A DNA stretch of 64,000 bases from Sminthopsis crassicaudata (lineage: Eukaryota): contig NC_133619.1 in NCBI RefSeq assembly GCF_048593235.1, forward strand, positions 330,536,454 through 330,600,453, in the 5' to 3' direction. Within the stretch, counting starts at the first letter, position 1. Every line of letters begins with the position of its first letter. Shown in pieces: positions 9,901 to 33,109 of this stretch. The position numbers and the translations under genes were made by a program. The notes below the pieces were generated by a model. The model saw only the letters and a list, made by a program, of their open reading frames with translations, searched no databases and had not been told where the DNA came from.

Positions 9901-11313
9901 TGCAAGGCATAAGATCCCATCAATGCCTAGGCAATGCAGGACCACACAGGTCACAGGGAAAGGGCAATGACCAGTCAGCCCAGGGCCCAGGCAGTGTGCA
10001 ATATCTATTGACCTCCCACTTCTTGAAAGGGATGGAGTACGGGTTTCTTCTTGTTTTTCTCTATTATGTAATCATTTTAGAGCTTTCTAATTTTGTGACA
10101 TCCATTTTCAATATGTTTATATGTGCTCTTCTTTTCATTTGTATTGTTGAGGTCATTATGTTGTAGCCACTGTTTTGAGGAGGCGAAGGGCAAAATAGGT
10201 GGAGAGAAATGCACAGAGCCAGGCCTGGAATCAAGAAGACCGAAACTGAAATTTGGCCTTAGATACTTATTGCCTGAATGAGTCTGGGCTAAATCCTTTC
10301 TCCATTATAAAATGAACTGGAGAAGAAAATGACAAACTGCCACAATATCTTTTTTCTTTTTAAAGAAAATCTCACATAGGATCACTGAGAGTCAAATACA
10401 TTGAAATCACTGAACAACAACTGCAACATCACTCTGCATCATTTCTTACTTCTTACTCTTGAACGAGCATTTTATTGACTGTCATCTAGCTGCTTTATAA
10501 TAATTGCTTTTTATAACATTTTTTAAGTATAATTATATCCCTCTACATTAATACCCCATGATTTGTTTAGACATTCCAAAATTTATGAGCTTCCATTTTG
10601 TTTCTAATTCTCTGTTATCAGGAAATCGGCCACTTGTTTTTTTCTTTATTTTGTTCTTTATGGGGACTTTATTTTTATTTTTTCTTCACTTATAAGCCCT
10701 ATAATACAGGTCACAAAGTTGGTGATCTCAGAGTGAATCCAAGTCTGACACTGACTAGCTGTGTTATGCTAAGTCACTTCTCCTTTGGGACCTGAGATGG
10801 TCCCTCATCTGTAAAATCGAGCTCCTAATACTTATACCACTTATTTTGCCAAATGTTTATGAGGGATATTTTTCAAAATGTAAAGTATTTCATAAATGTG
10901 AGGATTTACATTTTTTTTAGAAAAATCTTTTATTTTTTTATATTACCACAGTTTCTCACAGTTTCCCTCTCATCCTTTCAGAGAATCATGTGATTCAACA
11001 AATAGTATTTTTCAAGGAAAAAAAGCCAGAAAAATACTCTGAAAAAAAAATCTAAATGTATGAACAGTGTGCAATGTCTACAGACCTCTCACTTCTTCAA
11101 AGGAGTAATAGTAGTTTTTCTTTATTTTAGAGTCATTTTAAAGCTTTCTAGTTTTGTGACATTTATTTTTGAGTTTATGTGTGTTCTTCTTTTCGTTTAC
11201 ATTGTTGAGGTCATAGTGTTGTAGCCACTCTTTTGGGCGGGACCAACTAGGTGGAGAGATAGTGCACAAAGCCAGGCCTGGAATCAAGAAGACCAAAATT
11301 GAAATCTGGCCTT
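6920..11313 (+). repeat. Rearranged repeat unit lacking the TRIM gene
   Basis: 8330-9994 matches 2700-4394. At 9994/9995 the sequence jumps directly into 3'-flank sequence (homolog of ~7435), skipping promoter and CDS. Confidence 0.8.
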
Positions 11314-12600
11314 GGGTGGGAATCCTCAGTGCAGAGCAGGCACAGTGGGAGGATAGGCAGGGTTCACCTTGGCACAGGTCAGGCTTGGAGGGCATTAGTC
11401 TCAGTGAGGGGTTCCATTCCAGATGAGAAAAAGAAACAGCAAAGCAGATTATTATAAGGGATTCCCCCTAAGTGAGTTAGAGAGTGCAATTCTGAAACAA
11501 AGGATAGCACAACGCTTGTGGAAGAACCACACTTCCTTCTGAAGGGTACCCCCAGGCCTGGCTATCAGCCACGCCAGAGGAGGGTTGGTTGCCCACAGGT
11601 TTTGTTGAACTCCCCCTTATCTAGTTATCTGTTTGTACATTTACAATTTATAACCTTAGAGTAACCAGCCCTAAGTTATATCTGTCCTAATGAACAGGAA
11701 GAGGTGTGCAAACAGGGGAACTGAGGCAGGATAATTCAGGGAAACTGAGGCAGGACCATTAAAGGGAACTATGGCACAATATTCCACACTCTCTCTTCTG
11801 AATATTCAAATCATTGTATTACGTTCCTCTAGATACCTAGAAGGTCTCAGAACCATAATGTTGACTATTTGAGGCAGATAAAGCAAAATAGAAGTAGAAA
11901 AATGCAAGGACTTACATGGCAAGGGCAAGTCTCTCCCTGACAACCCCAAAGTTAACAGCAGGACAAAGGCTCCCTGCTGCAGTATGACAGGTGGAGTACC
12001 ATCTCAGCCAGAGAATCCAGTATGAGATGGACAGTTCACTCTTAGGTGGTCTGCAGTCATTTGTGCACTTAACTCAGCCTCTGCTTATATAGGAAGTAGC
12101 AGGGCTCAAGACAGTTGTGCTGCCCATTCAGAGGGGCACCCCACTCTAGGGGAGAAGGGTAAGGCTTGGAGTAGCTCCACCTGTCCAGGATACAGATTTC
12201 TGAGCAGAGATATGAGAGTAGGCACAGTTAGACCATCAAGGCAGACACACTCCAAACTTTTAGAGGCCTTATCTCAAAACTGCAATGTCCTATGAGAATG
12301 CTGAAATACTAATTAAGTAACTGGGGTTGCAGGACTGGAGACTGCCAAGTCCCAAGGTGCCTGATTTCCGGTTGTTTCTAAAAAAAGTAGTCTGAGTCTG
12401 CCAGGGCAATTCCAACAGAATAAGGGGTTCCAGAGCTAAAGCATAACCACAGTCACATTCCAGTAGGTTTAAGCAAGAAGTAAAAACAGAAAAGGACTGC
12501 TTAATTCAATCTGAACTAGTGGGAAGGGGGTGGGGCAGAAGTGCCTAAGGCAAAGTGAAGAAGAAAGTAGGAGTTTCCATTCTTTCAGGTATTTTTGAGA
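11314..12600 (-). mobile_element. LTR (11314-11778) with adjacent 3' internal ERV remnant, antisense
   Basis: On the minus strand a purine-rich tract (gaagagagagtgtggaatat) precedes TGTGCC at 11778, and AATAAA lies near 11447. It abruptly truncates the tandem unit. Boundaries are approximate. Confidence 0.45.
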
Positions 12601-12799
12601 AAGATCCACCTGTTTCTCCAATTTTTTATCTCTTGGTTCCTCCTTTTTCTCTCAGGCAAATGGAATCATCAAAAAAAGCAAATAAATTGTCAAATAACCA
12701 TCCCACATAGAAATCCCAAGAGCGAATTCCTACACATATAGGTTTTTCTGAAAAATCTCTCAAACATAACAGCAATGGCTACACAATTTTCACAATGGA

Positions 12800-13729
12800 T
12801 AAAGACCATAACCCAAAAAAGCTAGCATCTCTCGGGACCTGGCCACACCCACCCACAGTGTCTCAGCTCCCTGTCAGAATCTTAGAGCACAGACAATTCT
12901 GTCCTGCTAGTGCCTCACTGCTGCCCCCTGCAGTCTGTAGAGGAAGCTCAGTAATACTATCCAGCTCCCCCCCCCCAAAAAAAAAACAGACTGCATTTAT
13001 TTTTTTGTTTGTTATCTTTGATTCTTTTCTGACAAAATGGGCAAAAAATTAAAATGGGCTCTAACTATTGATAGCTTCTATCATGATAGAGAGCAGACTT
13101 TAAACCCTGAGGAGACTAAAAACAGACTGTCTCCGGATGAATCCCCAAAGGGGGATATGATCTATCCTCAACATACAAGACTCTTATAGTAGAAATTTAA
13201 AAAAAACCTCTCACAAGAGAGCTAGAAGAAAAGTGGGAAAAGGAAAGGGAACCTTGGCAAAAGGATCTGCATAAGTCATCCCACTCATTTAAAGATAGAG
13301 TGGATAAAGAAATCAAATCCTTGAAAAACAGAATTAGTGAGTTGGAGAAGGTAAACTATTCCAAAGAAAACAGCATTATTCAATTGGATAAAGAAAATAG
13401 CTCTCTAAAAAAATAAAATTGATGAAATGGAAAAAAAATTCCATAGAACTAAACAACTCACTTAAAAACTCAATTGGACAATTACAAAAAGATATAAAAA
13501 AGTGAGCAAAGAAAATAATTCATTAAAAATCAGAATTGAACAAATGGAATTGAATGACTTCAGGAGACACCAAGAATCAGTCAAGCAAAACCAGAAAAAT
13601 GAAATGATGGGGAAAAAAAATGTCAAATACCTTCCTGGGAAAACAACAGACCTAGAAAATAGATCTAGGAGAAATCATCTGAGAATTATTGGACTTCTTG
13701 AAAAATATGATTAAAAAAAAAAAAAGAGC
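12800..13729 (+). mobile_element. L1 5' part (5'UTR and first half of ORF1, decayed)
   Basis: ATG at 13037 followed by ORF1-type coiled-coil peptides (SKENNSLKIRIEQMELNDFRRHQE...TDLENRSRRNHLRIIGL). ORF1 resumes in register at 25281. Confidence 0.85.
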
Positions 13730-14054
13730 TGTAAGGGTCCATTAGAGAGGTATGGCAACCACAATTGGGATGTAAGTAGGCCAGTGGTCTTGAGGTTCCC
13801 TGATGTGATTGGATAGGATCACATAAGGACTTCCTTTGTGGGTGTGACTTCCAGCCACATGGGGGAATCCTAATTACTTTGATCTTGAGTAAAGTCCGGG
13901 ATGTAATCTCCGTCATTGATTGGCTTGTGCCTGTGACCTCATACACCCTATATAAGCTCAGAGGAGGAAGGGCTTGACCCTCCTTTTTTCCATCTTCTTT
14001 CCACCTGGAGCTCAGCACTGGGCAGTGATACTAAGAGAGTGCAGGAGGTCATAG

Positions 14055-14527
14055 TGATGAGGGTTGGGGTCCCTTTAAGATTCCTTTCTAATTGCCCAAC
14101 CCATGACTGACCTTGATTCACAAATCCTAGTCAAAGGCACCCTTTGAATATCTGGGCCCAGTCCCCACCCTCAGCTCAGCTTCCCCCAGCCCTCACCTGA
14201 TCTGAGCTAACTGAAAAGCCCGACAGAACTGGGTACCGCCCATCATCTTCTAGGTATAAAAGAAATGAGCTGGAACGCCCTCTTTGCAGGAGCCCTTCCC
14301 CCAACACATGGTATCCTTCCAGCCATGTAATGATCCCTGCCCTCCCAGCGGCCACCTCTGGCCCTGGCGTCTTTCTAACTGAACTTTGCTTCCAGATTCC
14401 TACAATAAACCTTTTATTTATCAATCTAGGTTTTCAGGCCTGTAAACTCATTTTACATGGGACACTGCACCTCATGGGATTATCTATGTGCTGAGAAATG
14501 GGGTTCCCCCTTTCCTTTCCCTCATTA
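14055..14527 (+). mobile_element. Solo LTR nested in the 5' LTR of the provirus
   Basis: Termini TGATGAGG...CCTCATTA and a 4-bp TSD ATAG (14051-14054, 14528-14531). It is absent at the matching position of the 3' LTR. Contains TATAAAAG (~14254) and AATAAA (~14404). Confidence 0.88.
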
Positions 14528-14868
14528 ATAGAGTGAGGTGTAAACCATGTGAATAAAATCTAAACTTGCCTGCCAAAACTCTGGGGTGCTCTGTTGTACT
14601 CAAACTATGTCCATATGAGAAAGCAGCTGAAGGATTTTGGAGACCTCAAAACAGAGGCAAAGTTTGTAATATTTGCCAGAGTTTCTCTAATTAGATCTAG
14701 GAACCAGGATTGATTAGCAGTAGTTAGGTGCAAGAGTGGCACTTAACATATGATCCCATAAATGAGGCGTAATAATAAATCGCTAAGCCTTGAAATATTA
14801 ATTATTAAAAGTTAATATTCAAGAAGGCATAACAGTTCCTCATCTGGAAGAGAAGGTAGAGATACATT

Positions 14869-16320
14869 ATGGGTCTAACTGTGACCAGACCCGAGAGTAC
14901 AGTTGTACAGGAAGCTTATGAGTTAGAAACTAGAACAGGTGATTCTTTAACAAAAAACACACCCAAAGAAAAAGAAAAGCAGGAGGAGTGCTCCCCAATG
15001 CCAAAGAGTATTTATCCTTCATTAGAAGACTTATCAGGATATGTGCTCCAGGTAGTCTAGGCAATAAAGAAAACAACCTCCCACACTCCTTAAGTACAGC
15101 TCAAATAGAGAGGAGTGATGGGATTAAACTTGGAACAAAAGATGCTGGAGCTAGGCCCTCAAGCAGAATTAGGAGGTAAAGCAAAGGCCAGACTACAGCA
15201 ATTAGAACAAGAAATGCAACAGCTCAGACAAAAAGCTGAGGTAGAAGACAAAGGATTAAATTAGAACAGAGAGGGAAGCAAGAGCCCTGGACACAGATTG
15301 AGCTGGAGAAGAGACAGGAGATTGTTTTGCAAAGACCAGCTGTTTTTCCCATTGAGCACAGAAAAAACCATCCCCACACAGCTTTACAGGAAGGGTTAAT
15401 GAAGGCAGCTGCTGAAGGGGAAAATATAATGCCATGGGATTCTGATTGGGGCCTACAGACTTACCCTGTAGAGGATAATGGGTGGGGTAGTCGGACACTT
15501 GTTCTGATCCCATTTAAAATGTTAAAAGAGGTGAAAGAAACTTGTGAAAGCTACAGCCTGAACTCATTTTATACTATGCACATTTTACAAATGAAATCAA
15601 TTAGTTATGCCCTTGCCCCGAATGATTGGAAGTGTATGGCATCTGCTTGTTTTACTCCTGGTCAGTCAGTGTGGCTATCAGAATTTACTAAATCAGCTCA
15701 GAAATATGCTATAGCCAATGACCATCAGGACCCGGAAAAGTCTGTGCTTATAATTATCGGCACAGGCTGCTATTCTACAACTCAGGCCCAGATATTTGTG
15801 TTTGCACCTATCTCACAGTGTGCTATGCAGGCTTGGGGAGAATAAATAAGGAGGGGCTGGTAGAGCAACATCTTACTTCAATAAAACAAAGCCCCAGAGA
15901 ATATATTCAAGATCATGAGTCCCGATTAAAAACAGCAATTGACAGAGTTATAGGGAAAAATGGTGCTTCTGACCTTCTTTTCAGGCAACTGCTAAAAGAG
16001 GGAATGAATAAGATGTGCAGAAATATAGCGGCTGGACTCTCTAAAGAAGCCCCTATCTCTGAAATTATAGATAGATGTAATGAAGCAGACGAGGCTGTTA
16101 ATAGAGAGACAATGGCCTCAGCTACAGCTCAGGGAATCACACAGGGAATGGACAGGAAAATGGAAAGAAATGTTATAACTGTGGCAGAAAGGGACATTTC
16201 CAAGCCCAATGCCATAAGCGGCCAATAGGAGGCAGAACATTATATTGCCTTGTTTATGGCAAGATAGGCAACGGGGCAAAATTTTATATTACCAGGAAGA
16301 AAAATACTACATGGTTCAGG
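14869..16320 (+). pseudogene. gag: Frameshifted gag
   Basis: MG start, a betaretroviral CA-like segment (YSLNSFYT..LAPNDWK), an MHR-like segment IKQSPREYIQDHESRL, and a CX2CX4HX4C zinc knuckle CYNCGRKGHFQAQC at 16171-16212. Confidence 0.8.
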
Positions 16321-16439
16321 GAAATTGGTGAGGGGTCCCACGAGGACCCCAAACACACACTAAATAGATTAGGAACCTATCCAGAAGGGAGCTACAGGGT
16401 CCAAAGGGAATTATCAGGCCTTGATGAGAAATATGTACA

Positions 16440-18760
16440 GTATTTGGTGAATGCAGTTGAGGGTTTTAACATTAACCCATGGACCACTGCACGTGTTGAG
16501 GTGCAACCCAAGGCTGGAGATAGAATTGGACTTTCAGACTATGCACCTGTGATTGTACATACTATGATATTAAAACATATGGAACCATTTATCTTGGTTA
16601 CCAATCCTCATCCATATCCTGTGAATTTAAAGGGAGATCATCCAATTGCTGAAGCACTCCCATTACATCCCTTTGGTGAGGTGAATTTTACTCACACGCA
16701 GTTAGAGAGAGTGGAGTTTTATACCTGTAGAACTACAAAGATAGTCTCTGGAGAGTCGGAACTCCCCTTTGCTTACCTTGTGGATTTTTCACTTCCACAG
16801 GTGGGCTTGACTGCCCAACCCCCTCCGAGTATTTATAAAACAGTGTTTATTTATAGAATGATTTGAGAAACTGCTGTCTTAATCACCAGTATAGATAGTC
16901 TGTGATCTATGACCCAGGAGGAGAAGGAACATCAGATTTATTGATTCACACTCCTGAAATACAATTTAGTATTAGTAATTCAAACTTTGACTTGAGGCAA
17001 AAGAATTTAAGGATATTATCGACCGGAGCTTTCATTGCTGAGTGTCCTTTGCTCATTATCTGTAGGAATCATTGAAAAGGCTGGTAGACACAGATGTAAG
17101 TAATATAGCTATTAGATGTGCCAGCTGGGTTAGTAATTGGTTAAAAGCCACCGCAAATACCTATGTGTCTGGTATAAAAGGGTCTATGACAACTAAAATT
17201 AGTGCTACCGCTTAGAAATGGAAATTTAAATTTAAGACAGAAAAATTTATTTGTTTTACAGTTGAAAGTTCCCCCATTGACCAGTGGGGAAGAGGATTCT
17301 TAAAAAATTCAAATTTTATTAGGCACAGGACAGAAAAGACTTAACCAAGGACATTTATAAGCTTCTCTAAGTCCTTGGAATCCCCTTAAATTTGTTATAA
17401 AAAGGAAGTTTGGGGAATGGAGAATGTTTATTGATCTGAGAAAAGTAAATGGACACGTGGAGACAACTGAAGCTCTTCAACTTGGGCTTCCATCTCCTCA
17501 ATAGCTTGAGGAATGGTCTTTTAGGATTAAAAATTAGATCCCTCTAGAGAGGTTATGAAGGAATTTGTCTTTTCAGTGCCCAGCATTAATTCAGCTGAGC
17601 CTTATAAAGGATTTGAATGGACAGCCTTGTCACATGGAATAAAGAACAGCTCAATTTTGAGTCAAAGGCATGTGGCTGCTGACCTTGCTCCTGTGAGAAA
17701 AGTATCTCCAAGAGTTAAGGTAGTATTCCTTTTAAGAGGAAACAATACTTTAGACTCACAATACCAGCTTAAAAAAGAAGCTCTAAGCTCTAAAAGAGAT
17801 TGAATTGTTTTATCTAATATGGCTGAAAAAATAACTAAAAAATATTGGAAATATCAAATTTTGTCCTTCATCAAGGAGACAATATGAAGTGGGTGAACCT
17901 CCCAGCACAATTAGATAAAAAATTTAAATTTTACCCAGTGCTCATGGTTACAATTTCAGTAAAAACCATTGAGAAAGTAGTAAAATTATCTGGGACAAGA
18001 CCTGGTGAATTATGTATCTCTCATATCAATGTACAAATTGATGTGTATTGTGAAACCATCCCAGAGTGTAAAAATTTATTGGCTACAACTCTAAGCCTTG
18101 CACGTGGATATGTAAAAATAATTTTTGATTCAGCTTATTCAGTAGAAGTGGCACAAAGAACTGCCATAGCTCAAATAGAATTTGTAGTTTTTAATATATA
18201 TTATCAGTTGTTTAAAGAGCTTCAAGAGCGAATGAGAAAGCACTCTGGTAAATATTATATCCTACATGTCCATTTTAAGAATAGACTTTCAAATCATATC
18301 TTTTATAATCAGGCTGATAGAACCTTATATCTGCAAATTGTGATAACTAAAGAAGTTAGGAGCATAGCAAAAGGCTGTACAGCTTGTCTTTCTTTTCACT
18401 CTCCTATGTTCCCTATAGGACAAAACCCTTATGGTTTGAAATTTAATGTTTTAAGACAATGAACATTATTCATTTTAAAAGGCAGAGCACTATGTAATTA
18501 TGGATATACATCCTCAATTCTTTATGGCTTCATTCCAATGTGGAGAAGCAGCTAGGCCTGTGATCTACCATTTTTCTATTGTAGGAATCTCACATGCATT
18601 TAAGACAGATTATAGATTGGCTTATAAATATTTTGCCTTTAAGTCTTTTTGCATTGAATTTGACTCTTCCCTATTCCATTGGCATTTCTTATAGTCCTAC
18701 TAATGAAGTCATTACTGGACAGACTATTTATATCCCCAAGATGTTCTCTTTTAAACAAGA
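16440..18760 (+). pseudogene. pol: Decayed dUTPase/protease, RT, RNase H and integrase
   Basis: LVDTD (mutated DTG) at ~17081, SPWN..FVIK..WRM..DLRKVN at ~17365-17450, FSVPSINSAEPY, and an integrase-type CTAC zinc motif at ~18376. Many stops and frameshifts. Confidence 0.75.
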
Positions 18761-18893
18761 GAAGGGAATTTTGGGATATGCACAAGATGTGGCAATACAT
18801 ACATGTGATTGTTTGCAATTTTTAAGTTATTTTGATTTTACATTCCTAAGTGTGAAGGTCTGAGTTTATCACCTTGTAATCTTAAGTTATAAG

Positions 18894-19252
18894 TTATAAG
18901 TCCAAGTTATCACCTTGTAATCCTAACACCTAAGTTATTTTGATCTTACATTTTTAAATTATTTCGGTTTTACATTTTTAAATTCTTTGGATTTTATCTT
19001 AGCAAGGCACTTCTGGCACACACAGAAAGTACAGCTAAGTGACAGATTGACTGACTTTTGTTTGTTTTTTTGACAAGAACTTTCTTTCCACAATGATGTG
19101 GAAAGGCCTGGATGGCATTTGGAAAGGGACAAATTGGGTTAGGGTTTGGAGTCCCGGATACATTCTTTTCATTCTAGATGCAGATCCAACAACAGAGGAG
19201 TGACCTGGGGATCCAAGAGAAGGACCAGAAAATAGCCCTGAGGGACCAGTCA
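18894..19252 (+). repeat. Direct repeat A (ERV post-integrase sequence); second copy A' at 23869-24265
   Basis: Near-identical text from ttataagtccaagttatcacc to ...gaccagtca in both places, differing by scattered substitutions and a short internal minisatellite length difference. Confidence 0.92.
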
Positions 19253-20278
19253 ACAATGCAAATGAAAAGATGAGCCCAAACAAAAACATCAACAATGAAT
19301 GTCACAAAGTGCTCTAAAATGATTACATAATAGAGAAAAACAAGAAGAAAGCCCTACTCCATCCCTTTGATGAAGTGGGAGGTCAATAGATATTGCACAT
19401 TACACATGCATTGAGATTTTTCTAGAGTATTTTTCTTTTTTTTTTCCTTTGAAAATTACTATTTGTTGAATCACATGATTCTCTGAAAGGATGAGAGGGA
19501 AACTGTGAGAAACTGTGATGATGTTAAAAAAAAAAAAAGATTTTAATAAAAAATAAAATGTAGATCCTCACATTTATGTAATACTTTACCCTTTTGAAAA
19601 ATGGCCCTCATAAATATTTGGGAAAGTGAGTGGTACAATTATTAGAAGCTCCACTTTACAAATGAGGGACCATCTCAAGTAAAAAAGGATAAGTGACTTA
19701 CCAAAAGCCACACTGCTGGTCAGTGCCAGCGTGGGACTCACAGCCAGATCTCCGCCCTTTATGACCTGTGTTATTTCTCTGCAGTGCCTTCTGCTGTCTG
19801 CCAATACCATCTAGCAACCTTTAGGCTAAGGATCCCCTGAGAACCAAATATTTCTCAAGTAGATATTCCAGTGTTGTTATCTATTAGCTCCCAATGCTGT
19901 TGTAACAAACTGCCTCTAATTTGGCCATGAACGTATTTGGAAGGAAATTAATAAGTTTAAGTGACAGAAAAAATGTAAAATTACTGACAGCTTGGATGTA
20001 TAATCAAAGTAAAGGTAAGGATATTTTTTCTATAAAAAGAAGAAAATTTTAATTAAAACACTTTAATGCAAAAAGTAATTTTTAGAGGATAAACTTTTTA
20101 TTTGAAAGATTTGTTTTTTGGCTTTTGACAATAAATAACAACTTAATATTAACTAATTAATAATAACATGTTAATAAATAATAAACTTTATAATATAAGT
20201 TTAATATAACTTTATTGACAAATTCAACAAGGGTTCTCATGAATGGAGTCATTGCAGAGGTTGATTTGGTTGCTTGGA

Positions 20279-21910
20279 TTAGAAAATCTCATTTTGGGAA
20301 CGATCATCTTCTTGAGCATTGTTCCTCCTGGGACAGATATGCAGATATCCAGAGGTGTTTTTCCCCTTTGGAAAGCAAGGAGAGAAACAAGGGAGAAGGG
20401 GACCTTGAAAAGCCTTATTTGGGGGACTGTAGATTAGAGTTCCATCTGCAGCATTGTAAAAAGCTACGTGCCCTCTTTCATAATCTAGGAAAACGCCCAC
20501 CTTCTGAACTGGTTTGCAGGAAGGAACAGTTTGCTTTGAATGCCACAAGTGAAAGTCCCTGCCAAAGGTGAAGGCCGCCAGGGTCAGCCTGTCTCCCAGA
20601 ACCTTCTGGCCACCATCCCCCTTCCTTCTGATCCGTTCCTCACAGACGCCCACCTCCCACTCCTTCTGCTCCCCCACCACCACTTCCCAGTAGTGTCTCC
20701 CTGAAGTGAACTTCTGCTTGGCCAAGACCCAGAGGGCAGAATCGAATCTCTCTGGGTTGTCGGGAACATCCTGTGGGACAGCATGGTATTCCACCCTCTG
20801 CAGATCTTCAGACAGGGCCAGATGGGGATTGGCTGTTTGAGGGTCCAGACACAGACGCCTGTGGAAAGTCAGCAGCGTTTCTGCCATTCCGGAGACGGGG
20901 CGCATGGTCCATGTCGGGGAAGCCACCACTGGCTTCTGAAGAAGGAGCTCCTCACTCCTTCCCAATGTGCCTTTTGCCTCCTGGAGCATTTCAAGAGGAA
21001 GCTGAACAGAATTCTTCTCTATGCCTGCTATCAGCATGTCCAGCTTGTGGATCTCTTGCTTCATTCTGGTCTTGCTCTCCTCAAACTTTGCCAGGTTGTC
21101 TGTGACTTCTTGGTCCAGCCTCTGCAGGTGTCGCTTCTTTTCCTCTGACAGGAAGTGGAGCTTTTGCTCCCATTCAGACTTCACAGCCTGCTGCTGAGCC
21201 TTGAGCCCCTGCAGGGGCTGCTTCTTTGGCTTCATTAGCAGTCCAAGGTTCTTTCGGAAGGGGCTTTTCTTGTTCTCCAAATTGTCTCTTGCTTCCTGGT
21301 CCAATGTCTGCAGTTGAATCTCTTCTTCCTCCCCCAAGAACTGCTGCATTTTCTCATATTCAGACACAAGCAAGGCTTTGAGCAGGCGGCCGTCCTTCTC
21401 CCACTGCGCCTCTCGAATTTCCTCAAATCCCAATTCCATCTGAAATCTCTTCTTCTGGGTCCTTAAACTCTTGCCTGTGGCCTCGAGCTTCTCCATGCAC
21501 TGAGTGACGGCCGCATCCAGGAGCAGAACTCTGTGCTTCTGGTGCTCTGGGCTTAAAAAGCAGGGTCCGCACAAGGGTCTCTGATCCTCCTCACAGAACA
21601 AGGTGTGCTGTAGGCCGTGTTTGTCACAGGTGGGCAGGTCCCCGAGGCTCTGCAGTAGGGGAGCTCTCTGCATCTTGCCAGTGTTAGCCAGATCCTGCAG
21701 CCCCCTGTCGGGGACCGTGTCTTCCAAGGCAGTGGCTGTGCTGCACACCGGGCAGGCTGTTGGAGGGCAGATGTCCTTCCAGGAGCTGGCAAGACACTCT
21801 GTGCAGAAGGTGTGGCCACACTCGAGAGTCACTGGGTCCATGAAATGGCCCAAGCACAGGGGACAGGAGGCCCCCACTCTGAGGTTTTCAAAGCAGATTT
21901 TGGCATCCAT
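20279..21910 (-). CDS. Intronless TRIM, copy 2, 543 aa, located inside the provirus
   Basis: Open ORF with the same RING/B-box/coiled-coil/B30.2 motifs. TATA, Inr and AATAAA are retained. Confidence 0.9.
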   Translation of the reverse strand: MDAKICFENLRVGASCPLCLGHFMDPVTLECGHTFCTECLASSWKDICPPTACPVCSTATALEDTVPDRGLQDLANTGKMQRAPLLQSLGDLPTCDKHGLQHTLFCEEDQRPLCGPCFLSPEHQKHRVLLLDAAVTQCMEKLEATGKSLRTQKKRFQMELGFEEIREAQWEKDGRLLKALLVSEYEKMQQFLGEEEEIQLQTLDQEARDNLENKKSPFRKNLGLLMKPKKQPLQGLKAQQQAVKSEWEQKLHFLSEEKKRHLQRLDQEVTDNLAKFEESKTRMKQEIHKLDMLIAGIEKNSVQLPLEMLQEAKGTLGRSEELLLQKPVVASPTWTMRPVSGMAETLLTFHRRLCLDPQTANPHLALSEDLQRVEYHAVPQDVPDNPERFDSALWVLAKQKFTSGRHYWEVVVGEQKEWEVGVCEERIRRKGDGGQKVLGDRLTLAAFTFGRDFHLWHSKQTVPSCKPVQKVGVFLDYERGHVAFYNAADGTLIYSPPNKAFQGPLLPCFSPCFPKGKNTSGYLHICPRRNNAQEDDRSQNEIF

Positions 21911-22374
21911 GTTCCTAGGTTTTCTAGTCCTTTTTTCCAGAGATAATCCACTAAGGCTAGGGAACTAGTTCTTTCCCTGAGCTCTTCTGTTTTCAGAGAG
22001 AGTCAACCCAGGATGTGCAACTATTTCTTCCCCTGAGCTCTGGCAACCAGGAAAATGACAGGAGTCCATCTAGTGGGCTCTTTTATAGGCCTTCCCTCTT
22101 AGCCCCTCCCCTCATCTACCATCAAGGTGTCAACTTATGCCCTGATAAAGACCCTAGTTTCTCCCTAGTGAGAGTTCTCACCTGGGTGAGTTTTCACTTC
22201 TGGATTTCATTGTATTCCTGGGGCTGGGGACTCACCAGGGTGTTCACACCTAGGCAAAGCAGCACAGAACTTTTTTCTCCAAATTGGGAAAGAACCAATT
22301 TTGTCTAAATGATTTCATTTTTTTTCTTCCTTTTTCTGCTTTCCTTTCCTTTCCTGTGCTTTTCTTTCCTTGGA

Positions 22375-22490
22375 TGTCAAAGTTGCCCAGAGTTATAGAG
22401 CTAGAAAGCATTTAGTGACTGATTCCTGGTTTGACTTGAAATACTCCAGGGCTGGCCTATATCCACTGTGCTATCTATCTGTCACTCACT
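22375..22490. mobile_element. Old MIR/MAR-like SINE fragment
   Basis: ttgcccagagttatagagctag...ctatatccactgtgctatc is a core-SINE-like motif. Confidence 0.45.
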
Positions 22491-22783
22491 TTCCCTATAT
22501 TGTTTACTGACACCAGGGAATTGGAGAATTGATCAAAAAGGTATTCCAGGAGGTTCTCTGTGGTAGTATTGGTCATAGTTATTGATCTAGTAATATTTGT
22601 CACCTCCATTGTCTATTCCCAGTTCCTAGTTACCATTTCAGTGGCAAAATAAGTTTTGAAGTTTCCAAAGTTTCATTAAAGTACTACTAGTGAAATTTCT
22701 AGGTCAGAAAGTATCATCAAGTAAAGATACAGACCAAGAATTTCAAAATTAGAATGTGTATTGCAATTATTTTGGGGTGAGAG

Positions 22784-23578
22784 TTATTTATTTATTTTTA
22801 TTCAAACTTTTAATTGACAAAGCATACGCATGGGTAATTTTTCCAACATTGACCCTTGCAAAGTCTTTTGTTCCAAATTTTCCCCTTCTTCCCCCCATAC
22901 TCTCCCCTAGCAGACAGGTAGTCCAATACATGTGAAATATGTTGAAATACATATTAAATCCAATATATGTATACATAATTAAACAGTAATCTTATTGCAC
23001 AAGAAAAAGATCAAAAAGGAAGAAAAAGAAAAACTGAGAAAGAAAACAAAATGCAAGCAAATAACAACAAAAAGAGTTAAAATGCTGTGTTGTGGTCCAC
23101 ACTCAGTTCCCACAGCCTCCTCTCTAGACTTTCTTTGTCACTGCACAAGTGGAACAGGTTTGAATCATCTCATTGTTGAAGAGAGACATGCCCATCAGAA
23201 TTGATTATCATATAGTCTTGTTGCTGCCAGGTATAATGATCTCCTGGTTCTGCTCATTTCAATTAGCATCAGTTCATATAGGTCTCTCCAAGTGTCTCTG
23301 AAACCATTCTGATGGTCGTTTATTATAGAACAGTAATATTCCATACCATTCATATATTATAATTTATTCTCCATTTCTCCAATTCATGGGCATCCACTCA
23401 GTTTACATTTCCTTGCCAATACAAAATGGGTTGCCACAAACATTTTTGTATATGTGGGTCCCTTTCCCTCCTTTAAGATCTCTTTGGGATATAATCCCAA
23501 TAGAAACACTACTGGATCAAAGGCTATGTACAATTTGATAACTTTTTGAGCATAGTTCAAAATTGCTCTGCATAAAGA
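22784..23578 (-). mobile_element. L1 3' end (end of ORF2 plus 3'UTR plus A-rich tail), antisense
   Basis: Starts with a (ttat)n/T-rich tail, then gcatgggtaatttttccaacattgacccttgca and ORF2-terminal antisense sequence resembling the L1 end at 29900-30355. Confidence 0.8.
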
Positions 23579-23599
23579 TTTTTCTTTATTTTTAAATTT

Positions 23600-23868
23600 A
23601 AAAATTTTTGGAGTTTAATATCATATTGACAAAGAAATGCCTCTTCTAGTTGTATATGTTAAACTAAATTGGATTGCTGACTAGGAAAGGAGGGAGAAAA
23701 TTTGGAATACAAGGTTTTGTAAAGATAAATGTTGCATGCTATTTTTGCATGTATTTTGAAAATTAAAAAGCTATTACTACCCACTACACACTGGTCAGAT
23801 TGGCTAGAATGACGGAAAGATAATGCAGAATGTTGGAGGGGATGTGGGAAAACAGGGACACCAATACA
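23600..23868 (+). mobile_element. Short sense L1 fragments (3'UTR piece and ORF2 piece)
   Basis: cactacacactggtcagattggctag...tgttggaggggatgtgggaaaacagggacac matches 29490-29580. Confidence 0.7.
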
Positions 23869-25280
23869 TTATAAGTCCAAGTTATCACCTTGTAATCCTA
23901 ACACCTAAGTTATTTTGATCTTATATTCTTAAGTTATTTTGGTTTTACATTTTTAAATTCTTAAATTTAAATTATTTCAGTTTTACACTTTTAAATTCTT
24001 TGGATTTTACCTTAGCAAGGCACTTCTGGCACACACAGAAAGTACAGCTAAGTGACAGATTGACTGACTTTTGTTTGTTTTTTTGACAAGAACTTTCTTT
24101 CCACAATGATGTGGAAAGGCCTGGATGGCATTTGCAAAGGCCCAAATTGGGTTAGGGTTTGGAGTCCCGAATACATTCTTTTCATTCTAGATGCAGATCC
24201 AACAACAGAGGAGTGACCTGGGGATCCAAAAGAAGGACCAGAAAACAGCCCTGAGCGACCAGTCAGATGTCAGCAGCCCTCCAGATGCTGATGGCAGCAA
24301 AGTCCCTCCTGACCATGACACCAGAGACAACAGAACCAACTCCGGTGTAGCAGCTAAAATGGACTGTTTTGGGTGATATGCAGTACAATTGTACTAGAAT
24401 TGTGAGAATTGTGCAGAATTATAACATCCTATCATGGTGACATCCCATTTCATTGACATCCTGCCTCTTTGATATCTTCTCTCTTTGGGCATGACTCTTT
24501 TGAGTGGGTTAAACATTGTGTTTGGTTATGGCAACAGTTGAGCCTAGTTCTCACTGTCATACCTTTGGCCTATTGGTCTGTTGCTTCCTACCTCCTTGAG
24601 CATGATACTTGGTGATGTTGTTGATCAAGCAAACTATAGCTAATGCTAAATAGCTTGATATGAGATGAATGGTCCCTTCTTTGAAAGAAAGGGGATTTGT
24701 AAGGGTCCATTAGAGAGGTCTGGCAAGCACAATTGGGATGTAAGCAGGACAATGGTCTTGAGGTCCCTGGAGTATGAGTATATAACGACTTCCCCCATGG
24801 GTGTGACCTCCAGCCACAGCAGGGAATCCTAATTACTTGGATCTCTAGTAAAGTTCGAGATGTAATCTCCATCATCAATTGGCTTGTGCCTGTGAACTCA
24901 TAGTCCCTATATAAGCTCAGAGGAGTGTTAGGATTCTTGCAGAATCTTAAGAGAGAATTCTTAAGGAAGGAGGAGGAAGGGCTTGACCCTCCTTTTTTTC
25001 ATCTCCTTTCCATCTGGAGTTCAGCACTGGGGTTCGATACTAAGAGAGTGCAGGAGGTCATAGAGTGAGCTATAAACCATGTGAATAAAGTCTAAGCTTG
25101 CCTGCCAAAACTCTTTGGTGCTCTGTTGTACTCAAAATACGTCCATATGAGAAAGCAGCTGGAGGACTCTGGAGACCTCAAAACAGAGGTAAGATTTGTA
25201 ATATTTGCCAGAGTTTCTCTGATTAGACCTAGGAACCAGGATTGATTAGTGATAGTTAGGTTTGAGAATGGCACCTAACA

Positions 25281-28200
25281 AAGAGCCTGGACACTATTTT
25301 CCAGGAAATTATCAAAGAGAACTGCCCAGATGTTATAGAAACAGAGGGTAAAATAGACATTGAAAGAATTCATCGCTCAAATACTGAAAGAGACCCTAAA
25401 ATCAAAACTCCAAGAAATATTGTGGCTAAATTCCAGAACTATCAGACCAAGTTAAAAATACTACAAGCTATTAGAAAAAAATCAATTCAAATATAGAGGA
25501 GCCACAATAAGGATTACTCAGAATTTAACAGCATCCACATTAAAGGATCCAAGGGCCTGAAATCTGATATTCCAAAAGGCTACGGAACTTGGTATGCAGA
25601 CAAGAATTACTTACCCAGCCAAAATGACCACTTTTTCCAGGGAAGAAGATGGACATTCAATGAAATAGGTTAATTTCATCGATTTCTGATGAAAAAAAAA
25701 CCAGAACTAAACAAAAAGTTTGATCTCCAAATATAGGACTCAAGAGAAACCTAAAAAGGTAAAAAGAAAACTTGGGAACTATATTTCTGTTATAAAAATA
25801 TATAAAGAACACATGTATAACTTGTTCTAGAAACTAGAGTTGGAAAAGAAATTGTACCAGAAAAAGGGTAAAGTGGAGGTACTAAATCTCACAAAGAGAC
25901 AAAGTAAACCTATTATATCTGAGAGAAAGAATGGAGGGGGATGAACACAGTATGTATCTTACTCTCATCAGAATTGGCTTAAAGAGAAAAATTTTAGACA
26001 TATTGGATTTATGGTGAAACTTCTCCCACCTCATTGAAAAGTGGGAGGAGAAAAGTGAAAAGGGAAGGAGGAAGCTAAGTTGAAGTGAATACAGAAATTG
26101 GGAGGAAAAAAGGTAAAAAAGGGGGAGGAATTCTAAAGTGGGAGAGGGATATAAAAAGGGAGGGCTGTGGGAAGCAAGTGGTACTCACAAGTTTAATACT
26201 GGGGAGGGGGGCAAGGGAGACAAAAAGGAGAAAAGCAAAAGCAGGAGTTAACAAATTAGTCATTTTCACCATAAATGTGAATGGGGTAAACTCCCTCATA
26301 AAGAGGAAGTGGTTAGCAGACTGGATTAAAAGCCAGAATCCTACAATATGTTGTTTACAGGAAACACACTTGAAGCAGGGTGATACATACAGAGTAAAAG
26401 TAAAAGGTTGGAACAGAATTCACTTCAGGTGAAGTCAAAAAAGCAGGGGTAGCCATCCTGATCTCATATTAAGCAAAAGCAAAAATTGATCTAATTAATA
26501 GAGATAAAGAAGGGCACTATATCTTGCTAAAGGGTAGCATAGATAATGAAGCAATATCAATATTAAACATATAGGCACCAAGTGGTATAGCATCTAATGC
26601 AAGAAGAAATAAACAGCAAAACTATAATAGCGGGAGATCTCAACTTTGCTCTCTCAGAATTAGATAAATCAAACCACAAAATAAATAAAAAGTCAAAGAG
26701 GTAAATAGAATACTAGAAAAGTTTGATATGATAGATCTTTGGTGAAAACTAAAGGCAGACAGAACACTTTCTTCTCAGCAATTCATGGAACCTTTACAAA
26801 AACTGACCATATATTAGGACATAAAAACCTCAAATTCAAATGCAGTAAGGCAAAAATAGTAAATGCATCATTTTCATATCATGATGCAATAAAAATTACA
26901 TTCAATAAAAAGCCAGGGGAAAATAGACTAAAAAATAATTGGAAACTAAATAATCTCATACTAAAGAATGATTGGGTAAAACAGCAAATCATAAACATAA
27001 TAAATAATTTCACCCAAGAAAATGACAATAACTAGATATTATACCAAAATGTGTGGGATGCAGCCAAAATGGTAATATTGGGAAATTTTATATCTCTAGA
27101 AGCCTACTTGCATACAATAGAGAAAGAGAAGGTCAATGAATTGGGCTTGCAACTAAAAATATTAGAAAAGGAACAAATTAAAAACCCCACACAAACACGA
27201 AACTTGAAATCCTAAAAATAAAAGGTGAGATTAATAAAATTGAAAGTAAAAAACTATTGAATGAATTAATTAAACTAAGAGGTGGTTCTATGAAAAAAGC
27301 CAACAAAATAGGTAAACCCTCAGTAAATCTGATTTAAAAAAGGAAAGAGGAAAATCAAATTGTTAGTCTTAAAAATGAAAAAGGTGAACTCACCACTAAT
27401 GAAGAGGAAATAATTAGGAGTTACTTTGCCCAACTTTATGGCAATAAATTCAATAACTTAAATGAAATGGAAGAATACATTCAAAAATATAGCTTGCCCA
27501 GATTAACAGAGGAAGAAGTAAATTGGTTAAACAGTCCCATCTTAGAAAAAGAAATAGAACAAGCTATTAATCAATTCCCTAAGAAAAAATTCCCAGGACC
27601 AGATGGATTTACATGTGAATTCTACCAAACATTTAAAGAACAATGAACTCAATGCTACATAAGCTATTTGAAAAAATAGGGATTGAAGGAGTCCTACCAA
27701 ATTCCTTTTATGACACAGACATGGTACTGATACCTAAACCAGGGAGGTTGAAAACAGAGAAAGAAAATTATAGACCAAACTCCCTAATGAATAGTGATGC
27801 TAAAATCTTAAATAAAATATTAGCAAAAAGATTACAGAAAATCATCCCTAGGATAATACACTATAACCAAGTAGGATTTATACCAGGAATGCAGGTTGGT
27901 TCAATATTATGAAAACTATTAGCATAATTGACTATGTCAATAACCAAAGTAACAAAAACCATATGATCATCTCAATAGATGCAGAAAAATCATTTGATAA
28001 AATCCAACATCCATTTCTAATAAAAAACACACGAGAGTATAGGAATAAATGGACTTTTCCTTAAAGTAATCAGGAGCATATTTAAAACCATCAGTAAGCA
28101 TCATATGTAATAGGGATAAACTGGAACTATTCCCAGTAAGACCAGGAGTGAAACAAGGTTGCCCACTATCACCATTATTATGCAATAAGAGTAAAGAAAG

Positions 28201-30355
28201 AGATTAAAAGAATTAGAGTAGGTAATGAGGAAACCAAATTATCACTCTTTGCAAATGATATGATGGTATACTTAGAGAACCCCAGAGAACCATCTAAAAA
28301 ACTATTAGAAATAATCCACCCCTTTAGCAAAGTTGCAGGATACAAAATAAATCCACATAAACCTTCAGCATTTTTATACATCACCAACAAAATCCAACAG
28401 CAAGAGATACAAAGAGAAATTCCATTCAAAACAACTGCTGATAGCATAAAATATTTGGTAATCTATCTGGCAAAGGAAAGTCAGGAATTATAGGAACAAA
28501 ATTACAAAACACTTTCCACGCAAATAAAGTCAGATTTCATTAATTGAAAAAAATATTAGGTGCTCTTGGATAGGTTGAGCGAATATAATAAAGATGACAA
28601 TACTCCCTAAACTAATATATTTATTTAGTGCTATACCAATCAGACTCCCAAGTAACTATTTTAATGACCTAGAAAAAATAACAACACAATTCATATGGAA
28701 GAACAAAAAATCAGGAATTTCAAGGGAATTCATAAAAAAAAAAAAAAAATCAAATGAAGGTGACCTAGCTGTACCAGACCTAAAACTATTTTATAAAGCA
28801 GCAGTCACCAAAATCATTTGGTATTGGCTAAAAAATAGATTAATTAATCAGTGAAATAGGTTAGATTCACAAGACAAAATAGTCAATAACTATAGCAATC
28901 TAGTGTTTGAAAAACCCAAAGATCACAACTTTTGGCATAAGAATTCGCTATTTGACAAAAACTGCTGGAAAAACTGGAAATTAGTATGGCAGAAACTAAG
29001 CATGGATCCACACTTAACACTGTATACCAAGATAAGATCAAAATGGGTCCATGACTTAGGTATAAAGAATGAGATCATAAATAAATTCAAAGAACACAGG
29101 ATAGTTTACCTCTTAGACTTGTGGAGGAGGAAGGAATTTGTGACCAAAGAAGACTAGAGATCATTATTGATCACAGAATAGAAAATTTTGATTATATCAA
29201 ATTAAAAAGCCTTTGTACAAACAAAACTAATGCAAACAAGATTACAAGGGAGGCAATAAACTGGGAAAACATTTTTACAGTTAAAGGTTGCGATAAAGGC
29301 CTCATTTCCAAAATATATAGAGAATTTATTCTAATTTATAAGAAATCAAGCCATTCTCCAATTGATAAATGGTCAAAGGATATGGACAGACAATTGTCAG
29401 ATGATGAAATTGAACCTATTTAATCATATGAAAGGGTGTTCCAAATCACTACTGATCAGAGAAATGCAAATTAAGACGACTGAGATACCACTACTACACA
29501 CCTGTCAGACTGGCTAAGATAACAAGAAAAAATAATGATAAATTGTTGGAGGGGATGTGGGAAAACTGGGACACTGATGCATTGTTGGTGGAGTGTTGAG
29601 AGAATCCAACCATTCTGGAGAGCAATCTAGAATTATGCCCAAAAAGTTATCAAACTGTGCATACCCTTTGACTCAGCAGTGCTATTACTGGGCTTATATC
29701 CCAAAGAAATACTAAAGAAGGGAAAGGGACCTGTATGTGCAAGAATGTTTGTGGCAGCCCTTTTTGTAGTGGCTAAAAACTGGAAAATGAATGGATGCCC
29801 ATCAATTGGAGAATGGTTGGCTAAATTGTGGTATATGAATGTTATGGAATGTTATTGTTCTGTAAGAAATGACCAGCAGGATATTTTTAGAAAGACCTAG
29901 AGAGACTTACATGAAGTGATGCTGAGTGAAATGAGCAGAACCAGGAGATTATTATACATACACTGCAACAACAATACTGTATAAGGATGTATTCTGATGG
30001 AAGTTGGTATCTTCAACAAAGGGATCTAATTCAGAACAAATTGATCAGTGATAAACAGAATCAGCTACACCAAGAGAAGGAACACTGGAAAATGCGTGTA
30101 AACTGTTTGCATTTTTGTTTTTCGTCCCAGGTTATCTTTATCTTCTGGATCCGATTCTTCCTGTGTAACAAGAAATTTGGTTCTGCACACATATATTGTA
30201 TCTAGGATATACTATAACACATTTAACATGTATGAGACTGCCTGCCATCTAGGGTAGAAGGTGGAGGGAGGGAAGGGAAAAGTTGGAACAAAAGTGAGTG
30301 CAAGGGATAATGTTATAAAAATTACCCATGCATATGTACTGTCAATAAAAAGTTA
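25281..30355 (+). mobile_element. L1 3' part: rest of ORF1, spacer, decayed ORF2 (EN, RT, C-domain) and 3'UTR
   Basis: ORF1 SLDTIFQEIIKENCPD. Endonuclease [26 protein letters not shown] and LFANDMMVY. 3' end aattacccatgcatatgtactgtcaataaaaag. Confidence 0.92.
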
Positions 30356-30375
30356 AATCATATGAAAGGGTGTTC

Positions 30376-31458
30376 TTTAAATCAACACAACAGACAGACA
30401 AGTCACAAACGCAAAACACAAATCACATAGACATAGACAGCACTACTACAACAATATTAACACATATAGACTAGGGGTTATCTGGAAACCTTAGAATAGC
30501 CCTCAGGGAAGTTATAGCTCGAGAGTCTTCCCTCTCAGAATCCAAATGGAACTTTTTAGGCTTTTGGTGCATTTCTCTGCCTGCACAAAGAATGCCCAGA
30601 GATAACCAGATAGTGGAAAAAGGCACTCAGAACCAGAGTTGTGCCACTGGCACACAGAACCAGATAGACACAGGTACACTTAAACACAAAGAGACAGTAG
30701 ACAAACATATCTGGAACACAACATACAATCAGCCAGCCAGGGCACTCCAACAGCATCTCAGGGAGGTCACTAGGGAGCACTGTTCTTGCGTCCAGCATAG
30801 CCACCTACTATCCTACAGTATTCACCCAAAATTGAACCGGTTCCCAGAATGCTCAAAGCCAACTGAGTCAAATTTATGTCTCCTCTCCCAGTATGCAAAA
30901 GTGGGTTACCGAGGTCTGGGGCCGAGGAACATCTTCTTGGTGGCCACCCCCCCTAGAGACGGTAGCCCCCTTCCTCCTCCAGGGAAAGGGACTGGCTATT
31001 GAACAGAGCCAAAGGCTATCTCTCTGGGGAGCTTCCAAATGAAATGCCCACATATACAAGACAGCCAAAGTAAGGACAGATAAGAGTGTTTATTGAGCAC
31101 TAGCCAGTACTGAACCCAGTCTGGACCAGGGGTCATTGCCAATCACTTTCAGAGACATATATTATAGAAAAATCGACAGAGGTTCCTTGGAACATTCATT
31201 ATGATAATAGAATTCCTTTTCCAGACAGGAGGTAAAGGTTATCACATTTAAGAATTCCATTCCCAGACAAGCAGTAAGACAATATTTCTTCATGTTTATC
31301 AAGTTGTCAAGGTCTTAGGTGGTGGAGAGCAACACATCTGGGGGTGTAAATATTATCTGCATTAGGGGGTGAAAAGCTAGCAACACAGTTCTGACTGCAG
31401 ACCGAGTTTCAAACAAAGGTAATGTTTTTCACGGTCTCAGGGGTGTCCTGCCACTTCA
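30376..31458 (-). mobile_element. LTR plus leader remnant of a second ERV family, antisense
   Basis: On the minus strand it starts TGAAGTGG at 31458, has AATAAA near 31090, and has a PBS-like tggccaccaagaag near 30947 followed by a low-complexity leader. Boundaries are uncertain. Confidence 0.5.
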
Positions 31459-32969
31459 GATCAATCACACAGGAAGCAAGCTGATGGGAGAAAGGGATTA
31501 CAATTAGGGAGGATAGAGTTGTATGTAGCTGGGACAATTGAGATACCCCCTGGAGAGGTGAAATCTGTTCCTCTCCAGCCTATGGATCCCTGGCCTCCAG
31601 GCACAGTAGGCTTGACCATTTCACCTCCTGAGAGTACTTACAAGACAGTGTCCATCCATACACTGATGTGGGAAACTGGGGAATGTGTAGATAATATCCC
31701 AGTCACTAATTCAGGTAGACAAAGTGTGACTTATCAACCAGGGGAAGTAGTAGCATCAGGTTTACTGATTCAGACTCCTAATAAGCAACCTGGTGACAGT
31801 CACCCAGATTCTGACTCCAAGCAGCAAAACCCAGGAATATACTGGACAGCAGCTCTGGCAGCTGACCGACCTATGCTCACCATCTGTATAAATGACATAT
31901 CATTAGAAGGATTGGTAGACACAGGTGCAGATCTCACAGTCATTAGAGATGCCAACTGGCCCAGTCACTGGCCAAAGACTAAGGCAGACACCTACATGTC
32001 TGGGGTAGGAGGATCAATAGCAGTTGAAGTTAGTGCTACCCCTTTGAGATGGATATTTGAAGGTGAAACAGGAGTTTTTATTCCTTTTGTAGCTGAAGAA
32101 ATCCCCATCAATTTGTGGGGAAGAGACATTTTAAAACAATTAGGATCATAAATGAGTACTTCGGTTTTTTAAGCAGGGCTGCTATTGAAGGCCGGCCACC
32201 ACTTTCACCTGTTCCTATCCAATAGAAAACTGATACACCAGTGTGGATAGAACAGTGGCCCTTAGGTAACAATAAAATTCAGGCCTTACTAGATATAGTA
32301 CAGGAACAACTTGACCAAGGACACTTACAACCTTCTCTAAGTCCTTGGAATTCCCCAGTATTTGTTGTAAAAAAGGAATCTGGAAAATGGAGGATGATGA
32401 CTGATTTAAGAAAGGTAAATGAACAGATGGAAACTATGGAAACTCTTCAGTCTGGACTTCCATCTCCTACTCAGTTGCCTAGAGAATGGCCTCTGTGGGT
32501 TATAGACATTAAGGATTGTTTCTATTCTATCCCTCTAGATAAGGAGGATATGAAAAGATTTGCCTTTTCAGTGCCCAGCATTAACTTAGCTGAGCCTTAT
32601 AAAAGATATGAATGGACAGGTTTGCCACAGGGAATGAAAAACAGAGCTACTATGTGTCAAATGTATGTTGCTACTGCTCTTAGTCCAGTAAGAAAAGCAT
32701 TTCCAAAAGTAATATTGTTACATTATATGGATGATATATTGGGATGTGCACCTGAGGAACAAATGTTATAAGCATGTCTATAAAAACCATAGAAACACTA
32801 AGGAATTATAAATTGCACATAGCTTCAGAAAAGATTCAAAGACATGCTCCTTTTCAATATTTAGGATATGAAGTATATCCTAAGGTGCTTACAGAACAAA
32901 AACAACAGAGAAGTTGAACACATTAAATAACTTTCAGAAATTGATAGGAGATATCCAATGGATGCGTCC
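31459..32969 (+). pseudogene. pol: Betaretrovirus-like pro-pol fragment (dUTPase-like region, protease, RT N-half)
   Basis: EGLVDTGADLTVI and NLWGRDIL (protease). [25 protein letters not shown] and LHYMDDIL (RT). Premature stop at 32769-32771. Less decayed than the 13.7-25.3 kb provirus. Confidence 0.88.
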
Positions 32970-33109
32970 CGGGGTAGAGTTAACTGCATCACCATGCTAA
33001 GTACTAAATATGTGTGAACTAAAGAACCATCATCTCATCAATTCCACTGAGTTATTATCTTGTTTCAAATATACTTCTCCAGAGTTCTGGCTCTCTAGGA
33101 GTTCCCTCT

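Follow-up and report, generated by a model that had tools for sequence, protein, structure and literature searches.

A TRIML1-like gene between the long terminal repeats of an endogenous retrovirus in Sminthopsis crassicaudata, a possible by-product of staged rearrangement in a tandem gene array

Host sequences lying between two long terminal repeats (LTRs) are described as products of LTR-mediated retroposition, among them the HERV-K/FAM8A1 case (Tan et al. 2016, PMC5131818). Gap-filling inside an element is described for single-copy Pack-TIRs (Tan et al. 2021, PMC8277862), and long-tract gene conversion with non-canonical termination is known in mammalian cells (Hartlerode et al. 2016, PMC5104497). 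As for the gene concerned here, Zhang et al. (2020, PMC6993854) report several "probable TRIML1" genes per marsupial, the extra copies of which they favour as annotation artefacts, and an expression of TRIML1 biased to testis and placenta. A stretch of 64,000 nucleotides of the Sminthopsis crassicaudata assembly (C3:330536454-330600453), called the window in what follows, was analyzed because it holds a complete TRIML1-like gene within an endogenous retrovirus (ERV); the window copy of this ERV is called W. About 400 kb around the window were compared piece by piece, 464 kb being examined in all. No paper on the locus, or on the gene array to which it belongs, was found in the openly available literature.

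The ERV spans positions 13730-25280 and is embedded in a host L1 that continues across the element. Two versions of one segment of its 3' internal sequence, repeat A (18894-19252) and repeat A' (23869-24265), both on the forward strand, enclose an insert that carries the gene on the reverse strand (coding sequence, CDS, at 20279-21910), i.e. antisense to the ERV. The left junction (J1, 19250-19252) shows a TCA microhomology and the right junction (J2, 23869-23870) a 2-bp TT microhomology. The target-site duplication (TSD) AAGAGC is found on either side of the ERV, at 13724-13729 within the host L1 and at 25281-25286, where the host L1 restarts and continues to about 30360 (both forward strand). 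An initial annotation, made from the letters of the window alone, had described a complete and open TRIM gene inside an ERV, an intact outer TSD, a TCA microhomology on the left, and entry of the gene at the DNA level long after integration. These points hold: the 543-aa open reading frame (ORF) and its Pfam domains are confirmed, the TCA is real, and a paralog shows this integration without the gene. Judging from the paralogs, we put at about 0.5 the probability that the gene-in-ERV arrangement is a two-step by-product of a tandem array with a segmentally copied ERV, generated by gene conversion with non-canonical termination.

The same ERV integration is present three times in the array: in W, in a copy E (C3:330662822-330669289) and in a half-copy X (C3:330493277-330503758, inverted). 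Copy E has the same TSD, at an identical site, and the same flanks, with one A and no insert. Copy X matches window positions 13290-23870 at 98%, J1 and the gene included, and at the position of J2 it runs on into the 3' end of an L1 instead of A'. This 5'-truncated L1 is complete in X (923 bp, with a TSD on both sides), while W retains only its first 88 bp, which together with the L1 target site (23766-23780) occupy 23766-23868 on the forward strand. The empty site of the 923-bp L1 was seen in three other array units. Since the L1 is intact in X and W keeps 88 bp of it, X would represent the ancestral state at J2, unless a donor has been lost; the 464 kb examined yielded no unit that carries the 923-bp L1 without J1. 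W and E are colinear over 4274-19252 and 23869-38807, and a junction at about 9994 is common to these two only, among the array stretches compared. Relative to E no ERV sequence is lost in W, and the A segment is duplicated. W differs from X at 63/5804 sites and from E at 89/5804 sites, and at a further 60/7399 on the right, and it has private alleles. A 94-bp piece at 16917-17010 is present in W and in dispersed members of the ERV family and is lost from X and E. The idea that E arose from W by A-A' excision was rejected on this ground, E and X sharing a 94-bp deletion absent from W; it is also countered by 15 sites left of A at which E differs from both W and X. Copy X further carries in its host L1 a young, full-length L1 of about 6.4 kb, at a site equivalent to 13290-13304 (L047:7330-10000, L048:1-3755). 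The best relatives of this X-specific L1 are 97-98% identical, which does not separate the models weighed below.

The descent of the two repeats was examined through their divergence. The 5' and 3' LTRs differ at 62/532 sites (11.7%), and A and A' at 11/359 sites (3.1%) plus one 38-bp indel, so that the LTR-LTR and A-A' figures are clearly unequal (Fisher p=2e-6). By eye, the LTRs had been placed more than 10% apart and the repeats only a few percent apart, which computation bears out. The A-A' value had also been likened to the divergence between TRIM copies; the figures do agree (the six TRIM units of the window are 2.1-3.2% apart in 14 of 15 pairs and 0.3% in the remaining one), but they cannot serve as dating, since the TRIM cores are mosaic. 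A differs from copy X at 5/354 sites and from E at 11/359, and A' differs from E at 9/397. The 38-bp indel and five substitutions split A and X from A' and E: A is of the X-type haplotype, without the 38 bp, and A' of the E-type haplotype, with them. Polarity among W, X and E was assessed with 26 dispersed loci of the same ERV family as outgroup. Where A is non-repetitive, A' and E have one derived base in common (the other base being present in 26/26 outgroup loci) and A and X have two adjacent ones; no clean site uniting A' with A was found. The polarity of the 38-bp indel is ambiguous with these loci, the region being internally repetitive. Beside J2, W and X differ at 13 sites over 1581 bp (0.8%), below the 3.1% of A-A' (p=0.002), whereas a one-step insertion predicts equal figures for W-X and A-A', unless later conversion masked the gap. 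From about 17.8 kb rightward, just left of J1, W differs from X at 8/1432 sites and from E at 29. The relative order, as read from these divergences, is integration (11.7%), then three-way copying (1.2-1.4% over 13290-17800), then J2 (0.3-0.8%).

J1 is common to W and copy X, and J2 was seen in W only. Among the 40 places listed for each search, J1 is found at full length at 2 and J2 at 1, all inside the array. A microhomology of at least 3 bp is expected by chance with a probability of 0.057 (about 6%), and one of 2 bp with a probability of 0.17. Read evidence was taken from Logan contigs of four runs (X1, X2, X11 and X7), with a bridging threshold of 31 letters for contigs across a junction. 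For J1, run X1 provides one bridging contig (19184-19323) and run X2 a contig that is one letter short; this support is not specific to W as copy X shares J1. J2 is crossed with 0 mismatches by a 58-nt contig (28+30 letters, below the threshold) in run X1 only, i.e. in one of the four runs, and run X1 may be the sample behind the assembly itself. J2 is uncovered in runs X2, X11 and X7, and contig gaps were not counted as polymorphism; run X2 yields a 57-nt contig identical to the A' haplotype of W. J1 is likely the older event, and J2 likely a younger one, unique to W.

In the proposed origin, a breakpoint (duplication or deletion) at TCA would first have joined an old TRIM unit, by its 3' flank, to the end of A, giving X. 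In a second step an empty, E-like copy would have broken at the start of A, and its left broken end would have invaded X by means of ERV sequence about 99% identical over kilobases. Copying would then have proceeded from the A of X across the TRIM gene and the flank upstream of it, and on into the L1 (about 5-6 kb), before the end was rejoined to the other broken end on the 2-bp TT microhomology. Repeat A would be donor sequence and A' recipient sequence, hence a pair of paralogs and not a target duplication, and the TSD would be intact because both halves of W descend from a single integration. The virus would supply homology only, the gene being equipped with a predicted TATA box and poly(A) signals of its own. 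The termination that such a conversion supposes is seen at J2, where only 88 bp of the donor L1 precede the join, on TT, to an E-type A'. An E-like backbone is likewise found on both sides of W, through the colinearity and the junction at about 9994, although X-like patches remain. The 94 bp that W retains, lost in X and E, would be difficult to account for had its whole left half come from X.

Several observations weigh against this proposal. W, X and E are each a patchy mosaic. The repetitive part of A changes polarity with the alignment, which leaves a single clean site uniting A' and E. W is X-like also at 11361-13289, where it shows 7 differences from X versus 22 from E. Over 13290-17800 the shared-derived sites are mixed (9 uniting X and E, 6 W and X, 5 W and E) and several depend on a single outgroup; the border at 17.8 kb was picked by eye, and an unbiased single change-point falls at 14.2 kb. 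Chance alone would yield a 2-bp microhomology in 17% of cases, J2 lacks formal bridging in the read data, and the direct recipient, an empty copy with the haplotype of W, is absent from the assembly.

Part of this evidence would suit another history, in which J2 is a plain breakpoint, either a microhomology-mediated deletion between tandem X-like and E-like units or a duplication junction, that put an X-type left half next to an E-type right half; conversion patches would afterwards have given the left half its E-like look. We regard this as a serious though less probable alternative: it shares the key facts with the conversion model (E empty, X with J1 only, A grouping with X and A' with E), and the X-like state of W at 11361-13289 speaks for it, as do the abundance of tandem and inverted blocks in the array and the pervasiveness of conversion. 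It needs extra events, however, to account for the E-type junction of W at about 9994 and for the 94 bp missing in X. The single event of fork stalling and template switching or microhomology-mediated break-induced replication (FoSTeS/MMBIR) favoured by the initial annotation would have made J1 and J2 together and duplicated A. A copy of W would later have recombined with a donor that has since been lost, giving X, and E would be either a paralog of earlier date or the outcome of A-A' excision. Microhomology at both junctions (3 bp at J1 and 2 bp at J2, with the chance probabilities of 0.057 and 0.17 given above) and an A-A' divergence much younger than that of the LTRs agree with such an event, the unrooted tree of the four copies of A is compatible with it, and the gap-filling inside elements described by Tan et al. 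(2021, PMC8277862) is independent of transposition. We nevertheless consider it unlikely. X carries only the first of the two junctions; A clusters with X-type and A' with E-type sequence, one derived base uniting A' and E while no clean A'-A site is found; W-X divergence stays at 0.8% toward J2, below the 3.1% of A-A'; and a lost donor plus further recombination are required, no J1-free unit with the 923-bp L1 having been found in the 464 kb examined.

It must also be weighed whether W is a chimera that the assembly made out of X-like and E-like sequence, with J2 not real, the array being highly repetitive and J2 being crossed by a 58-nt contig in one run of four, possibly that of the assembly's own sample. 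Such a chimera appears improbable: W has private alleles and differs from X and from E, the overlap at J2 is only 2 bp, the contig crossing J2 has no mismatch, and the 57-nt contig of run X2 equals the A' haplotype of W. Retroviral transduction or LTR-mediated retroposition, in which the gene is captured during reverse transcription and integrated as one chimera, would leave an intronless gene between two LTRs, microhomology at the fusions and an intact TSD, as seen here. Yet copy E shows this very integration in an empty state. What was inserted is genomic DNA in antisense orientation, with flank and L1 pieces, and not an mRNA, and viral sequence is duplicated and not replaced. Divergence is moreover 11.7% between the LTRs, against about 1-2% between the insert and X. 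No match to the insert was obtained within about 1.5 kb of any of the 26 dispersed family loci, and among the listed matches the junctions are confined to the array. Transduction, which had been dismissed from the outset, is very improbable on these grounds and is refuted for this assembly, the search for dispersed chimeras having found none.

The remainder of the ERV is decayed. Its 5' LTR (13730-14748, forward strand like the parts that follow), whose relatives elsewhere in the genome are mostly 70-82% identical, had been described incompletely: a solo LTR of another family, 473 bp long, is nested in it at 14055-14527, with the TSD ATAG and its own TATAA (14255) and AATAAA (14404). The nested LTR is present also in copies X and E. 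A relative of this solo LTR, whose TSD is 4 bp, lies at L071:1-110 (94% identity over 110 bp). The internal region 14749-18893, which includes the 94-bp piece mentioned above, is a dead gag-pro-pol remnant with 78-90 stops in each frame. Pfam detects Gag_p24 (E=1e-21) and Gag_p24_C (E=6e-8) in it, with zf-CCHC and RVP below cut-off, and a scan of 14749-18896 gave no pol or env family at E<=0.01; of the gag-pro-pol reading made initially, the Gag domains stand, but the region is dead and its pol part is without a Pfam family at that threshold. The Gag_p24 domains and the 6-bp TSD point to a class II/betaretrovirus-like ERV. In 26/26 dispersed family loci the end of A continues without interruption into the sequence that starts at 24266 in W; the remaining 3' region with the polypurine tract (about 24683-24695) occupies 24266-24697, and the 3' LTR 24698-25280, with a 50-bp insertion at 24921-24970 relative to the 5' LTR. 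The canonical retroviral primer site begins with TGG, and none of this kind was found after the 5' LTR. Given this, and the AATAAA at 14404 in the nested LTR, a full-length ERV transcript looks unlikely, and so does the mobilisation in trans that had been suggested, the 5' LTR being split by the nested one. In principle the gene could be excised by recombination between A and A', which are 97% identical over 359 bp. It is doubtful that the ERV paralogs acted in the germline as a homology landing pad delivering an intact, expressed gene between two LTRs, regulated by the 3' LTR 2.6 kb upstream of the TATA box and segregating as a presence/absence allele, with donor, product and empty site kept next to one another. 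A second, related ERV remnant lies at 30400-32980; it is pro/pol-like, 66-72% identical to 16901-17715, and has an 88% relative, inverted, at L044:3499-4982.

Within the insert, the TRIML1-like CDS is intronless and open (543 aa). Its RING, B-box and PRY/SPRY domains, called by Pfam above the curated cut-offs, occur in TRIM order (RBCC: RING, B-box, coiled coil), the coiled coil being inferred. On the same reverse strand, the TRIM 3' flank (19253-20278) carries AATAAA 62 and 176 nt past the stop codon, and a TATAAAA box at 22081-22087, 171-177 nt 5' of the ATG, marks the predicted promoter. The region 22282-23780 is an old flank that lay upstream in the donor TRIM unit, with a SINE-like (short interspersed element) remnant near 22380-22480 and an inverted L1 3' piece at 22781-23575. 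As it is about 99% identical to copy X and about 85-88% identical to three other array units, the "SINE and L1 pieces" taken earlier for separate inserts are in fact part of this shared flank, which contributes 1.6 kb of genomic sequence, L1 pieces included, to the insert. A 596-aa form, encoded by two window copies, is probably unused: its upstream ATG lies 12 nt past the TATA box, and in the W copy a stop follows. Among the bases private to the W copy of the gene are ones in codons 9, 296 and 376. Contigs of run X7, guessed to be RNA, cover intergenic DNA too.

The best database matches of the protein are named marsupial "probable TRIML1". In a quick, midpoint-rooted tree of 37 proteins without outgroup TRIMs, the gene falls into a dasyurid clade of a marsupial-only group, apart from eutherian TRIML1; the members of this marsupial-only group are mostly 536-577 aa long. 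In this tree other marsupial proteins are closer to the eutherian group, which does not fit a one-to-one orthology with TRIML1. A role of the gene in retroviral restriction finds no support in these sequence data; the protein falls among marsupial TRIML1-like genes, and the ratio of nonsynonymous to synonymous polymorphism (pN/pS) is about 0.5 in PRY-SPRY too.

A genome search gave 25 full-length copies of the gene at 98-100% identity, all in one 385-kb array (C3:330.457-330.841 Mb). They are intronless and in both orientations, and 24 of the 25 are open (ORF of at least 536 aa). Besides the gene of W, the window contains CDSs at 4917-6548, 34894-36525, 42030-43661, 49816-51447 and 57572-59203. 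About three exon-split relatives with 72-80% identity are located at C6:169.94-170.13 Mb. The array is likely an amplified retrogene, and the exon-split cluster likely its parental cluster. A member of the same ERV family adjoins this cluster, at C6:170133777. Polymorphism was counted on 23 of the 25 copies after codon alignment, one truncated and one frameshifted copy being dropped. Among these copies pN/pS is 0.50-0.56 in every domain, with 0.50 in PRY-SPRY, and the array copies are under purifying selection. The comparison of copies gives no sign of positive selection in PRY-SPRY: an early pN/pS of 1.94 was an artefact of unaligned indels and fell to 0.50 once the codons were aligned.

Exchange between copies is extensive. 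The four-gamete test is failed by 841/1830 pairs of informative sites, and for none of six 260-bp segments of the CDS do the four nearest neighbours of the gene of W include copy X, although the unique flanks of the two are about 99% identical. With cores that are mosaic and exchanged between copies, the divergence between TRIM genes dates nothing, and the open frame in W is not special; it is likely maintained by conversion with the rest of the array. Database clusters contain 8 consecutive devil accessions and 2 Antechinus proteins, and the species-specific clades of dunnart, Antechinus and devil, with long branches between species, suggest concerted evolution. Other rearranged units were seen in the array. 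At 8236-10449 lies an array unit without its TRIM gene, the upstream flank being joined directly to the 3' flank at about 9994. From 47,000 to 64,000, and in L051-L052, units of about 7.76 kb form a very young tandem run, two neighbours of which differ at 10/3047 sites and encode a 538-aa form. The CDS of copy X (L047, C3:330495211-330496896) has a 54-bp in-frame insertion near the C-terminus, which brings the protein to 561 aa.

The locus is a cautionary case, as a gene between two LTRs with an intact TSD mimics viral capture or one-step insertion, where the paralogs indicate a staged rearrangement. W is real in the assembly and can be reconstructed neatly; it results from processes already known, repair and segmental duplication, within an array subject to conversion, and a mobile or LTR-controlled restriction factor is not demonstrated. 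If conversion with non-canonical termination is the true explanation, W would show in a natural germline what has mostly been observed in reporter assays of repair, and the donor copy and the empty copy would both still be nearby in the genome. With 25 copies, 24 of them open, the array suggests that true expansions can underlie extra TRIML1 annotations in marsupials. The gene shares the RING-B-box-PRY/SPRY architecture of the "probable TRIML1" of Zhang et al. (2020, PMC6993854), and differs in being intronless, amplified to 25 copies and part of a marsupial-only clade.

In its course, the proposed second step resembles the events reported by Hartlerode et al. (2016, PMC5104497), where kilobases are copied from a homologous donor and then joined by microhomology where homology is absent. 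Those events were obtained with a reporter in mouse embryonic stem cells and with sister-chromatid donors, whereas here a germline event is inferred, with a non-allelic donor and a whole gene. The gap-filling of single-copy Pack-TIRs, as presented by Tan et al. (2021, PMC8277862), has in common with W the capture in cis of nearby DNA after insertion, a microhomology of about 2 bp and the existence of an empty version of the site. It concerns a TIR transposon instead of an ERV, and in W the two junctions appear to be of unequal age, one of the switches having likely occurred through long paralog homology. LTR-mediated retroposition, including HERV-K/FAM8A1 (Tan et al. 2016, PMC5131818), likewise places intronless host sequence between LTRs with short similarity at the fusions, but there, according to that account, an mRNA replaces part of the element and the copies can disperse, whereas here genomic DNA was added and nothing is dispersed. 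On this comparison W is closer to transposition-independent gap-filling than to LTR-mediated retroposition.

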